Assembly (NCBI GenBank): GCA_964016885.1 | Contig: OZ024750.1 | Span: 22,816,001 to 22,880,000 of the forward strand | Length of the DNA: 64,000 nt | Reading direction: 5' to 3' | Source of the DNA: Eledone cirrhosa | Taxonomy: Eukaryota | Shown: piece by piece, positions 34,810-48,960 of the stretch | Layout of the letters: each line of letters begins with the position of its first letter | Position numbering within the stretch: the first letter of the stretch is position 1 | The notes under the pieces: model-generated | Databases searched by the model: none | What the model was told of the DNA's origin: nothing | The model's input: the letters and a program-made list of their open reading frames with translations, nothing else | Position numbers and translations under genes: made by a program

Positions 34810-34927
34810 CCTATCTATTTATCCATCCATCTCTCTCTCTCTCTCTCTCTCTCTCTCTCTCTCTCTCTCTCTCTCTCTCTCTCTCTCTCTCTCTCTCCTG
34901 TATATATATATATATATATATATATAT
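34810..34927. repeat. (CT)n-(TA)n compound microsatellite
   Basis: Directly visible. Confidence 0.95.
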
Positions 34928-35388
34928 GCAGAGGTTATATTTAATTTGTTGGGATTCAACAAGCTTAAAAATGTTTATAACTGGTATAAAGCACTCAACA
35001 ATTTAGTGTGGTGGCCCTTGAAATATGTATAATAAAATAAATATGGTTTTATAAATATATTATATTGTATATATATATATATATATATATATATATAATG
35101 TGTGTGTGTGTGTGTGTGTGTATACAGCTGCTCCGAACATGCCGAACGCCACAGGTTGGGAAAAATATTCCTGGTATTTTAGAATTATATATATATATAT
35201 ATATATATATATATATATATATATATATATATATATATATATATATATCAGAGAGTGCCCGCGATGGCGCCTTAGCCACGCTATCACCCACGATAATGCT
35301 GCATGTGGGTTAGATAGCTTTAAAAAATATTATAAGTCTCAAATACTGCCCGCAGCATTAAAAATGTGTAAAGGAGAGAAAGAAACAT

Positions 35389-35553
35389 AATTGTTTCTAC
35401 TTTTAGCACAAGGCCAGCAATTATTCCAGTACTTTATTTTATCGACCCCGCAAAGTTAACCTCGGCGGGATTTGAACTCAGTCCGTAAAGGGACGTAACT
35501 GTGCTGCAAAGCATGGCGTCCGACCCTCTACCGATACTGCCAATCCATCGCCC
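35389..35553 (-). mobile_element. tRNA-derived SINE
   Basis: Reverse-complement copy of the 12172 element (ggatttgaactc B-box). Confidence 0.65.
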
Positions 35554-35997
35554 TAAAGAATCATAATTGCGTCCGATATGAAACGTCTATCTCCGGAATG
35601 GACCTCCGTCGGTTTTAAGGATGTTTCAATTGTTCGATCAACAGAACTGTCTGCTCATTAAATTAATGTGTAAGTCATTGACCATTCCACAGACACGAAC
35701 ACCTATAATTTAATTCTTGAGGAGATTCAATGTGTGATAAGGCCAGGTATTTGAATTACAGGTACAGTTCATCTGAGGGTTTCCAAACAGTTTTCACTTT
35801 TAGCCTTAATAATATTGAATATTAAAACTCTAATTCCGTAGTGAGTACTCCTTTCTCTCAGCCGTCAAAACCACATACAGATATATATATATATAAATGA
35901 AGTAATTCCATCGGAAAAGTCCAGGAAATAAGAGTGCTCTATGTATGCAACAGAGCTTAATTATTATTATTATGTAATAAACAACATAAGGCAATTA

Positions 35998-36057
35998 TTC
36001 CATTTACCAGTGGTTTCTTAAAAGCAAAAGGTTTTGCTTTCAATCCTCAGAATGAAA
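35998..36057 (-). ncRNA. Type I hammerhead ribozyme (family A, mirror copy)
   Basis: Exact reverse complement of 36130-36189. Confidence 0.75.
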
Positions 36058-36129
36058 AATCCTGGTTTGTTTATTGAATATGGATTCTAAAAACCTTTAG
36101 AATCCATATTCAATAAACAAACCAGGATT

Positions 36130-36189
36130 TTTCATTCTGAGGATTGAAAGCAAAACCTTTTGCTTTTAAGAAACCACTGGTAAATGGAA
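36130..36189 (+). ncRNA. Type I hammerhead ribozyme (family A)
   Basis: Stem I TTTCATT/AATGGAA; CTGAGGA core; stem II TTGAAAGCAAAA-CC-TTTTGCTTTTAA; GAAA; stem III A-CC(ACT)GG-T; GUA cleavage triplet ending at 36182. Confidence 0.75.
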
Positions 36190-36285
36190 TAATTGCCTTA
36201 TGTTGTTTATTACATAATAATAATAATATATATATATATATATATATATATATATATATATATATATATATATATATATATATAT

Positions 36286-36650
36286 ATATCAATGATATTA
36301 ATAAATGGAGACTATATTTATAAAACCATATTTATTCTATTATATATATTTCAAGGGTACCAAAACCTTGGTAGGCTCTCATTGGATATCCAAACGGAAC
36401 TTGAACCGTTAAGGTCTGATTCCTGGGTATGTCACTATTTATAAAACAAATTTTGTATTTTATCTGATGAGAGCGTACCAAAGTTTTGGTACCCTTGAAA
36501 TATATATAATAGAATAAATATGGTTTTATAAATATAGTCTCCATTTATTAATATCATTGATATTATACTCCAGAAAACTTGTCGAGTGCTTCGAATCTGT
36601 TATAAATATATTTGTTGAATTACCAACAAATTAAATATCTCTTTGCTTTT
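36286..36650 (+). mobile_element. Fold-back element, family B (Penelope-like inverted pLTR plus tail) in a (TA)n tract
   Basis: ~100-bp inverted arms plus ~90-nt tail 36563-36650; reverse-complement homolog of 47942-48361. Confidence 0.6.
36456..36516 (+). ncRNA. Minimal type I hammerhead ribozyme (family B)
   Basis: Stem I TATTTTAT/ATAGAATA; CTGATGA; stem II GAGCGTACCAAA-GT-TTTGGTACCCTT; GAAA; palindromic TATATA stem-loop III; AUA cleavage triplet. Confidence 0.7.
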
Positions 36651-46000: not shown

Positions 46001-47141
46001 TTTATTTTGAGAACAATACCTTAACATCAGTATGAGTGGCCAGTTTCAACAGAAAGAGGTAAAGAATTCTGGCCTGTTTGAACATTAAAGGGTTAAAATG
46101 TAGTTTCAGATAAATTCAGCTTGACATAGTATGTGGTATGGCTGGGCTTTGATTTACACATTTTTTTCAAACTGAGAGGACTGGAGCAATGGGAAATAAA
46201 GTGTCTTGCTCAAGGGCACAACGAGTTGCCAGTAAATGAATTCATAACCATATGGATGTGGACCAAACAATCTGTCCACTAAGCCATATGACTCACCACA
46301 CACACACTAATACATCCATTTACAACCTGATTGCAATGTGTTCTTAAACAATTTACTGATAATAAGTTTATTTTAAAATGTTTATATTTATTTATTTATT
46401 TATATAAGGACTTTTTCTCTTCCAAACACCAGCTTGTTAATGAGAAAGTTATATTAAATCCTTCCAAATTGCTGATTGTTTTCGAAATTATTTGAGAATT
46501 ACAGGCAGTGTCTTTTGTTAGAAATATCAAAACAAAGGGTTAAAATAAAGTGTGGCTAGGTGTCGGGGAGAGCATCCAGGTGTGGAAAGCATGCTTTAAA
46601 AAAATGTCATCTAAGCCATGCAAGTATTGAAAAAGTTGATGTAAAAACAATACCGAGGAGGTTGATTCTTTTATCATTTTCATCATTCATTTCATCCGCT
46701 TTTCCCTGCTTGCAAGCGTGGGATGGGAACTGATTCTGGCTTGATTTCTACAGCTAGATGCCCATCCTAACACCAACCTCATTTACAGTGAGTGCTGGGT
46801 GCTTTTTTTTCTGTGGCGCCTACAGGTCCACTTTACAGTGTGGGCTGTGCTTTTTTGCTGTGACACCTCCACGACCACTTTGCAGTGGAATGATAGGGAC
46901 CCCAGTCCTATCATCTCATTTCTACAGCTGAGTAAACGAGCAATGTGAAATAAAGTGTCTTGCTCAAGGAAACAACACATCACCCGGTCTGAGAATTGAA
47001 CTCACAACCTTTCGATTGCAAGCCCAATGCCATGTGCCTCCATCTTGATTCATATAATTTCTTTCCATTCCATTTATATATATATTCTTTGTTTGTTTTC
47101 AGAGAATGGCTTTAATCAAGAAGACCTTGAAGAAATACTAG
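42836..47141 (+). CDS. TAF12: Transcription initiation factor TFIID subunit 12, 156 aa
   Basis: join 42836-43063, 44474-44588, 45627-45715, 47103-47141; VLDKRRLQELVKEVDPLEQLDEDVEEVLLQIADDFIENVVTNACQIAKHRKSNVLEVKDVQLHLERNWNMWVPGFG...AHKQRMALIKK is the TAF12 histone fold. Confidence 0.96.
43400..44090 (-). mobile_element. RTE LINE fragments (deleted, degraded) in a TAF12 intron
   Basis: IGTWNITTL (APE start), LEKAYNYIPR, GVRLRQEWILSPLL remnants. Confidence 0.7.
44474..44588 (+). CDS. TAF12: TAF12 coding exon 2
   Basis: VLLQIADDFIENVV...DVQLHL; cag acceptor, gtaag donor. Confidence 0.95.
45627..45715 (+). CDS. TAF12: TAF12 coding exon 3
   Basis: ERNWNMWVPGFGSEDLRPYKKAVVTDAHKQ; tag acceptor, gtaagt donor. 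Confidence 0.95.
45902..46096. mobile_element. piggyBac-type MITE
   Basis: ttaaccctttagcattcac...taaagggttaa. Confidence 0.7.
47103..47141 (+). CDS. TAF12: TAF12 last coding exon
   Basis: RMALIKKTLKKY*; cag acceptor. Confidence 0.92.
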   Translation, partial: RMALIKKTLKKY

Positions 47142-47799
47142 TGTGATATGATGATTTCATTCGAACAAACATTGAACTGCTGACTTAGTTCAAGTGTAAC
47201 CTGTCACACACCAATGCATCACATCTATCATATTAATGTGGTTAAATTTTCCAATCACTCCTTGTAGATGTTATGCCAGAAGCAAGTTATCTTAGTGCCT
47301 ACCAAGCAGCTGGTACATAAGATGATGATGTTGATGGGTCTTTGGTCAGCTAGCATCTGTAGGAGATTACGGACGGTGCTGTCGGTCAGCGATATGCCAA
47401 TTTACATAATATTGCTGAACCATAATATTTAAATTAACGATGCCTATCTTATTTAATTTATGGACATAAACATCCTTTAAGTAAGTAAAGAGAACATCTA
47501 TTATGATGAATACTCTTGACTTATTGACTTAGTCTAATTAGGTTTTATATAAACACACATACGCACATATATATATGTGTGTGTGTTAAATGATGATGAT
47601 ATATATATATATATATATGTATATATACATGTGTATATACATGTATATGTATATTTTATATATTTTTCTGTGCATTGTATAAATTCAGATCTGTCTTTGT
47701 CGGTTGTCTCTGCAACATGTGATGCTATATTTATGCTCTTTGAGTCTCAACTCAAAGCAATTTTCTCCACTATTGTGTGTTTGATAATTCTATTTGACA

Positions 47800-47941
47800 T
47801 CAATGATATATATGTATGTATATGTATATATATATGTATGTTTATATATATATATATATATATATATATATTTATATATATATATATATATATATATATA
47901 TATATATATATATATATATATATATATATATATATATATAA
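47800..47941. repeat. (TA)n microsatellite
   Basis: Directly visible. Confidence 0.95.
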
Positions 47942-48080
47942 AAGCAAAAGGGATATTTAATTTGTTGGTAATTCAACAAATATAAATGTTTATAACTGAT
48001 TCGAAGCACTTGACAGGTTTTCTGGAGTATAATATTCAATGATATTAAATAAATGGAAACTATATTTATAAAACCATATT

Positions 48081-48141
48081 TATTCTATTATATATATTTC
48101 AAGGGTACCAAAACTTTGGTACGCCCTCATCAGATAAAATA
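48081..48141 (-). ncRNA. Minimal type I hammerhead ribozyme (family B)
   Basis: Reverse complement reads TATTTTAT CTGATGA GGGCGTACCAAA GT TTTGGTACCCTT GAAA TATATAT A ATAGAATA. Confidence 0.7.
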
Positions 48142-48265
48142 TAAAGTTTGTTTTATAAATATTGACATAACCAGGAAGAACTTAATGGTTCAAGTTTTTC
48201 CAGGAAAAACTTGAACCGTTAAGTTCTTCTTCCTGGTTATGTCAATATTTATAAAACAAACTTTA

Positions 48266-48326
48266 TATTTTATCTGATGAGGGCATACCAAAGTTTTGGT
48301 ACCCTTGAAATATATATAATAGAATA
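48266..48326 (+). ncRNA. Minimal type I hammerhead ribozyme (family B)
   Basis: TATTTTAT CTGATGA GGGCATACCAAA GT TTTGGTACCCTT GAAA TATATAT A ATAGAATA; predicted cleavage after 48318. Confidence 0.65.
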
Positions 48327-48960
48327 AATATAGTTTCCATTTATTTAATATCATTGAATATATATATATATAAATATATAATCATCAATTAAAACATTAA
48401 AACTTTTCTCAAAGTACAACCCAATACAATAATGAGATTTTGTTTATTAATTGTGTTGTGATTTAATCCAACATTTTGTGGGAGCAATTAAAAAAAATTA
48501 AGTGTGGTGATATGTTACCACTTGGACTAATACCCATCTGTTTATGTTTATGTACCAACTTTCTATGTGATCCCATATTCTCCCTTACTCCCTGTGTACA
48601 TAAATACATACCTTGCTCAGTGAGATAGGCCTCGGAACCACTTCTCAACCATACTGCCTTATCTGCAGTTAGAACTATGTGGAGAAAATTTAATGCAGTT
48701 GAATTTTTCCCTGATATTCATCTGAATAAGATTAGAAACCATGTTTCCAATATTTATAAAAATTGTTGAGAAATGATGGTGCCTGAATTGATCAGTTATT
48801 AGTGTCACATCTTTCTTAGTCTGTCACTGGCACTTCACAGTTTCAAAGATCAAGATACCACATTGATACCACATTGACCAAGATCAATTTTGGTTTTATG
48901 AAATAAAGCCACCCATTTTAAAGGGTACCTCTTTGGATTAAAATCTTCCAACATTATTTG

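Follow-up and report, generated by a model that had tools for sequence, protein, structure and literature searches.

Hammerhead-bearing fold-back elements in TA microsatellites of Eledone cirrhosa are probably truncated 3' ends of Penelope-like elements

What are the short, hammerhead-bearing fold-back elements that lie around the TAF12 gene of Eledone cirrhosa, mostly against TA microsatellites, and how did they arise? The window in which we addressed this question is a 64 kb stretch of the forward strand of contig OZ024750.1 (22,816,001-22,880,000), and all element coordinates are positions within it. It contains five such elements, A to E, in two families, A with E and B with C and D. Insertions of Penelope-like elements (PLEs) are heavily truncated at their 5' ends and often combine an adjacent inverted truncated copy with a one-sided tail (PMC8557442; PMC3846280). 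Palindromes occur at their head-to-head junctions, for which self-priming has been proposed (PMC3846280), and a 2014 study traced hammerhead pairs on opposite strands, separated by 100-700 bp, to truncated PLEs (PMC4209133). The architecture is already known, and the elements described herein are new families of a known kind. They are probably dead-on-arrival insertions of the last 50-270 nt of PLE RNAs, with two opposed copies in each.

All five elements consist of two arms placed head to head, the second arm of E being a remnant. One arm runs to the end of a tail of 62-91 nt, found at one end only in A, B, C and D. Element A has its tail (35895-35959) and tail-bearing arm (35960-36091; type I hammerhead at 36057-35998) on the minus strand, opposite an inverted tail-less arm on the plus strand (36096-36227; type I hammerhead at 36130-36189), and the two arms are complementary at 132/132 nt. 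An (AT)32 tract (36226-36289) is common to A and B. The inverted tail-less arm of B (36286-36387, minus strand) ends inside the catalytic core; aligned to 36467-36563, it differs by 2 substitutions and a gap of 74 nt. It is followed on the plus strand by a sense arm (36388-36563), whose type I hammerhead (36456-36516) is predicted to cleave after 36508, and by a tail (36564-36650) that opens with ACTCCAG...GAGTGCT and closes with an 8-bp hairpin and TTTT before (AT)4. Element C comprises a minus-strand tail (47941-48031), whose 3' end adjoins (TA)34, a tail-bearing arm on the same strand (48032-48201; type I hammerhead at 48141-48081; 91.5% over 260 nt to B) and a plus-strand inverted tail-less arm (48203-48361; type I hammerhead at 48266-48326) with a 14-nt deletion in distal stem I.

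The two remaining elements carry no complete ribozyme. In D, a minus-strand arm of tail alone (34928-35008), truncated inside the tail and with its 3' end against (TA)13, matches the tail of C at 83% over 60 nt and that of B at 75% over 69 nt. The opposite, tail-less arm (35015-35067, plus strand) holds the 3' half of a hammerhead, is truncated in stem II, ends at (TA)15 and matches B at 36492-36536 (95.6% over 45 nt). E is a decayed family A arm with tail (38815-38985, minus strand; 73.9% over 115 nt to A) whose core is broken from 38970 and which fails the hammerhead descriptor given below; its opposite-arm remnant (38986-39015, plus strand) retains a second CUGAUGA at 38999, and a self-inverted match spans 38958-39011 (74% over 54 nt). 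The coordinates and layout given for A, B and C in a preliminary description of this DNA were borne out. Its view of D and E as decayed relatives holds for E, D being not merely decayed but a two-arm insertion, and its account of the 5' end as an inverted copy of the ribozyme segment fits A and C but needs amending for B, whose inverted arm holds no ribozyme.

Counted from the ribozyme cleavage site, the tail-less arm ends after 45 nt in A and after 55 nt in B, and its end in C falls on the same base as in B. The tail hairpin starts 3 nt past this internal end and lies 48 nt behind the cleavage site in A, 43 nt in E, 58 nt in B and 60 nt in C. The inner junctions are unlike one another: A is symmetric with a 4-nt spacer, C is symmetric with 1 nt, the inverted arm of B lacks the 74 nt noted above, and in D a tail-only arm is joined to a tail-less arm with zero overlap. 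The apices of B and C lie ~10 nt apart in the unit. Because joints differ from copy to copy, in the reads described below as in the window, and because the arms of D do not overlap, we conclude that the fold-back is made anew at each insertion and is not copied as a unit.

The two families exhibit no similarity by BLAST (best E 0.053), in keeping with the earlier statement that they are alike only in the catalytic core; the layout of the tail hairpin is, however, also common to both. Two further candidate likenesses did not exceed chance and were rejected: both tails carry a GAATTAC heptamer close to the 3' end, and stem II of A has a 10-nt match to the end of the C tail. Single arms fold with modest z-scores (-1.6 to -2.4; E, +0.5), and the tail of A folds as two hairpins (z -2.4). 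Open reading frames in the tails vary between copies; we claim no coding role for them.

Using a descriptor that combines CUGANGA, GAAA and UH with three stems, we found five hammerhead motifs in the 64 kb, all within A (2), B (1) and C (2), against a mean of 0.05 and a maximum of 1 in 60 block-wise (local) dinucleotide shuffles. The earlier recognition of hammerheads in these three elements is thereby confirmed, although only the two motifs of A pass a stricter stem II rule, since those of B and C mismatch after 3 bp. In both families stem II has 10-12 bp, stem III is short and self-complementary, and stem I is continued by a second helix of 9-12 bp past an internal loop, so that the ribozymes are not minimal. 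Stems Ia, Ib, II and III are common to A and B without likeness in sequence, a pattern of structure kept while sequence changes. In constrained folds of single arms the hammerhead lies 0.8-7.9 kcal/mol above the minimum. Two results count against the hammerhead call. The G10.1-C11.1 pair is absent, with U-A in A and G-U in B and C, and three Rfam scans, a check of the kind that had been proposed, returned no match to a hammerhead family; sub-threshold matches to microRNA-type families were rejected as a product of the hairpins.

In PLE hammerheads stem III is a short palindrome, and cleavage is weak and depends on dimers (PMC4209133; PMC6765202). The stem III segments here are self-complementary (duplexes of -8.2 and -3.2 kcal/mol), and cleavage as a dimer is therefore predicted. 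In whole fold-back elements the modelled hammerhead fold costs 68-90 kcal/mol. Whichever side read-through comes from, it would transcribe the antisense arm before the other. With this order and at this cost, the ribozyme is predicted to be sequestered within the fold-back, and genomic copies should be catalytically silent. Among cephalopods, 235 Rfam Hammerhead_1 hits are reported from the giant squid genome (PMC6962438); in the O. vulgaris genome PLEs account for 6.83% in 190 families (PMC13282606), and hammerheads go unmentioned in the covered portions of that paper's main text.

Which PLEs could have supplied these ends? Hydra-clade PLEs carry canonical hammerheads, lie nearly all in (TA)n and include a member from Octopus bimaculoides, Hydra-1_Obim; Penelope-13_HM is listed with a 5'-truncated inverted copy (PMC8557442). 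The protein marks of the clade are RWK, DKT and a CxCX5C linker, with no CCHH. The tail of A opens with a GCTCT...AGAGC-ACTC hairpin that it shares with Hydra-clade PLE tails. A 12-nt motif from this tail has two matches in the 584,176-character supplement of PMC8557442, and both fall at Hydra termini, one closing Hydra-2_Ajap (3' end) and one opening Hydra-1_Ajap (5' start); the chance expectation is ~0.017 (assuming 400 kb and 38% GC). In the window the strict motif occurs twice, in A and in E (shuffle mean 0.05, max 2). A looser descriptor, RCTC-n-GAGYRCT, proved unspecific (4 matches against a shuffle mean of 1.43), and the single match of a CTCCAG descriptor is circular, as this was drawn after B had been inspected; both were set aside.

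We then compared the elements with published Hydra sequences outside Repbase, by eye and without an alignment score. Of six new Hydra consensus 3' ends, three have a GCTC...GAG hairpin with ACT after it, at a distance of 38-47 nt from the cleavage site, and the remaining three terminate 36-47 nt past that site, like the tail-less arm of A. The first 3' end behind the hammerhead thus lies at 36-47 nt in these Hydra sequences, against 45 nt in A and 55 nt in B. Stem III of A equals that of Hydra-1_Obim except for a loop base, and the opening of the B tail, ACTCCAG...GAGTGC, resembles the tail of Hydra-1_Crog. Like these PLEs (Hydra-2_Ajap, Hydra-2_Amil, Hydra-1_Crog and Hydra-1_Obim), the elements have (TA)n flanks, two types of 3' end, a type I hammerhead close to that end and a tail that begins, ~40-50 nt past the cleavage site, with an RCTC...GAG hairpin. 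They differ in having no open reading frame (ORF) and a longer stem II, and neither family is Hydra-1_Obim; family B further differs in carrying ACTC...GAGT in place of GCTC...GAGC and in its longer tail. The sequence comparison supports an assignment of family A, and E with it, to Hydra-clade PLE 3' ends. B, C and D probably belong to the same clade, another such as Neptune being possible.

The tail hairpin appears, on these sequences, to be conserved in Hydra-clade PLEs of four phyla, and the covered portions of PMC8557442 carry no remark on it. It may serve as a start or positioning signal for the reverse transcriptase (RT). Several other leads were rejected. Naiads lack canonical hammerheads and were dismissed as parents. 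The Hydra-type hairpin pattern in sequence collections gave one viral and two bacterial loci, all lacking both an upstream core and a TA tract, and a family A 17-mer gave 20 metagenomic loci, none alike beyond ~23 nt, with an inverted pair flanking unrelated ORFs, which we attribute to chance. The family B tail pattern had no match in metagenomes, nor the B core pattern in viral contigs.

Seven of the ten element ends are no more than 5 nt away from a TA tract (at least 5 units), against a baseline of 2.1% of the window; with the tract shared by A and B counted once, the count is 6/9 (P 7e-9). The preliminary description had placed all five elements in or against (TA)n, which is true of these seven ends but not of E, whose right end lacks TA and whose left end is at (TG)n, nor of the right end of B, which adjoins only (AT)4.

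Genome-wide evidence came from four public read runs aligned to the B unit (36382-36650) at 80% likeness. One run gave 7,895 contig records and another 27,481 reads, while two runs of other organisms gave 41 and 4 records; the read depths do not represent copy number. Together with the three B-family insertions in 64 kb, these counts show that B/C is a large genomic family. TA continues behind the tail end at 36648 in the consensus of 54 contigs, and single contigs from another organism's run carry TA behind both end types. Seven of the ten joints listed change strand, all seven at different coordinate pairs; none of the ten lies at the cleavage site or joins units of full length head to tail. 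Loose read ends at 36487 and 36496 point to a subfamily with another stem II, pairing by eye at 10/10 and 9/10, the former end probably representing few loci of a reduced-representation library. At the 10.1-11.1 pair the reads exhibit A-U, and a C at 36496. Among the 40 of 94 variants that were listed, none of the nine within the ribozyme (36456-36516) changes the core, which is not significant (P 0.12) and counts as weak evidence. Several truncation points, at 36467 in B, 36492 in D and 36493 in the reads, coincide with or adjoin stem II, as though the RT were halted by this hairpin.

How such insertions could form is suggested by Poseidon, a PLE of Anolis carolinensis whose purified protein cuts and extends both strands of AT-rich DNA in vitro, with two RT start sites that bracket the tail and with no need for ribozyme cleavage (Frangieh et al. 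2024, PMC11167929). By analogy, a GIY-YIG endonuclease would nick both strands of (TA)n, and reverse transcription would be primed from each nick, once at the tail end and once internally, immediately ahead of the tail hairpin. Both cDNAs would stop early and then be joined, at short palindromes where the apex is symmetric (A, C and perhaps B) and at unrelated points where it is not (D). Short palindromes are present at the apices of B and C, and similar letters stand upstream of 36398 in one contig of another organism, which is weak evidence. For A and C, self-priming followed by endonuclease resolution is an alternative; D would need two separate cDNAs, because self-priming of one would yield overlapping arms. 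Read-through RNA would present the antisense arm first and form a long duplex in which the ribozyme is predicted not to fold, and the hammerheads would therefore be cargo of the parent's terminal repeat. As the putative donor, we regard a full-length, protein-coding PLE at another genomic locus as most likely.

The likeness to Poseidon covers the AT-rich target and a tail that follows a hammerhead and has one start site on each side, and the lack of a listed joint at the cleavage site is consistent with an uncleaved RNA template. Unlike in Poseidon, whose ORF starts at the hammerhead and which belongs to another clade, the core ATG frame of B/C closes after 17 codons. The elements also resemble complex insertions of endonuclease-containing (EN+) PLEs (Arkhipova et al. 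2013, PMC3846280) in their head-to-head inverted repeat, palindromic junction and one-sided tail; they differ in tails of 62-91 rather than 30-40 nt, in comprising terminal repeat only and in having no readable target-site duplication. In the literature covered, mostly open papers outside Repbase and Dfam, we found no account of short hammerhead fold-backs in octopus or of a conserved Hydra tail hairpin.

Several observations weigh against the origin from truncated PLE RNAs. Pfam detected no GIY-YIG domain in 94 reading frames of the window, and 13 short PLE motifs gave four scattered matches, none near the elements, in agreement with the earlier statement that the window holds no PLE ORF. The arms are very short, the longest having 176 nt; summed read depth 50-60 nt upstream of the B core is 1-2% of that on the core's 5' side, and records running over either end of the unit number only 164/7,895 and 52/27,481. 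Target-site duplications are unreadable, the flanks being TA tracts. Hydra-1_Obim is not the parent of A or B, because it differs outside stem III. Two family B tail motifs had no match in the supplement of PMC8557442, and hence the clade of B rests on the by-eye likeness to Hydra-1_Crog. Finally, independent early stops alone leave the symmetric apices of A and C unexplained. Taken together with the Hydra likeness of family A, the results nonetheless support the earlier description of the elements as ORF-less PLE footprints, and narrow it.

The steep upstream drop in depth fits truncation, subfamily divergence or a short donor. Under the last of these, PLE enzymes would act on a short non-coding RNA of ~300 nt. 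Such a parasite would stem from a Hydra terminal repeat and resemble short interspersed elements (SINEs) or retrozymes. All ten arms in the window are short, four of the seven strand-changing joints have one side at 36386-36398, near the apices of B and C, and few records extend beyond the unit; non-autonomous PLE derivatives are known, moreover, from Chlamys (PMC8557442) and as animal retrozymes (bioRxiv 10.64898/2026.07.22.740005). Yet depth declines stepwise with no single edge, and B itself diverges from its relatives at 36398, which can fake a boundary. In one contig of another organism (depth 6) the sequence extends 61 letters ahead of 36398. The steep drop and the joints at 36386-36398 could reflect the place where a short donor RNA begins, or just this divergence. 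Heavy 5' truncation is, in addition, normal for PLEs (PMC8557442; PMC4209133), and the ten listed joints include no unit-length head-to-tail one. The drop in depth from arm to tail was not used to count tail-less copies, because subfamily divergence confounds it. Non-LTR retrozymes, which the preprint cited above covers in its examined portions as tandem units only, are likewise short, non-coding, PLE-derived and equipped with a type I hammerhead, but they are arranged head to tail, whereas the elements here are head to head with a buried ribozyme; the 64 kb window holds no head-to-tail tandem of hammerhead units. We consider a short donor RNA rather unlikely.

A bolder version seems to us slightly more doubtful again. 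In it, an abundant, protein-less parasite of Hydra-clade PLEs in octopus genomes would consist of a ~300-nt hammerhead RNA whose RCTC...GAG tail hairpin, seen in corals, sea cucumbers, copepods and octopus, would recruit the RT and set the internal start, with two opposed cDNAs per event entering (TA)n and seeding long RNA duplexes, one of them maybe in the TAF12 3' untranslated region (UTR).

It is very improbable that the elements are a fixed fold-back ribozyme class that is transcribed and reinserted as a unit, as had also been proposed. A and C are near-perfect palindromes, B was perhaps one before its loss of 74 nt, the apices of B and C are close together in the unit, and palindromes assemble and sequence so badly that shared apices could escape the read data. 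Against this stand three different junctions in B, C and D, the absence of any fold-back from D, the seven differing read joints and the predicted sequestration of the ribozyme, whose fold costs far more in the whole element than in a single arm. A DNA transposon (a miniature inverted-repeat transposable element, MITE, or foldback) with a TA target duplication, whose long terminal inverted repeats the arms would be, would account for inverted arms and TA flanks, and MITEs do occur in octopus (PMC13282606), but we give this reading almost no credence: one terminus has a tail beyond the inverted repeat and the other has none, so that the two differ, the ends of D are non-complementary, hammerhead geometry is kept in two unrelated sequences and the A tail matches Hydra PLEs.

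The surroundings of the elements are of separate interest. A TAF12 exon at 42836-43063 has 96% identity to an Octopus vulgaris protein (next match, 65%). The coding exons of TAF12 are preceded by D, A, B and E, and C lies ~0.8 kb behind the stop codon. On the plus strand from that codon (47138 onward) to 48044 there is no AATAAA or ATTAAA, the first ones being inside C, and C may form part of the TAF12 3' UTR, or terminate it, with ~158 bp of duplex. A CpG-rich segment at 34500-34780, between TAF12 and a Ki-67-like gene, contains TTCCCGCGC and CCGGAA motifs, which we take to be E2F- and ETS-like, and is possibly a shared promoter, in which case D, A, B and E would lie in a TAF12 5' intron. The Ki-67-like gene (8128-23700, minus strand), presumptively named from its motifs, has two long arrays of 33-nt (11-aa) SPKK/TPK repeats and FHA-like exons. 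Other repeats include a fold-back without hammerhead at 56314-56459, in which a SINE-like repeat stands as an inverted pair of 68 nt; a small palindrome next to a run of TA, likewise lacking a hammerhead, at 38242-38299; an 891-aa ORF of a long interspersed element (LINE) with endonuclease, RT and PHD matches at 25219-27894; and a 32-nt minisatellite of ~18 copies with a TA run inside the unit at 61243-61995. A decayed LINE (36690-38100) adjoins the B tail, and an RT fragment at 37572-37796, considered as a PLE candidate, belongs to a decayed LINE instead (clade judged by eye).

RNA editing is extensive in cephalopods, and the long duplexes of these elements are candidate editing substrates. 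Thousands of short copies with mixed junctions would constitute a natural record of PLE integration intermediates. If the tail hairpin is indeed a signal that positions the RT, the origin of PLE tails and inversions becomes directly testable.

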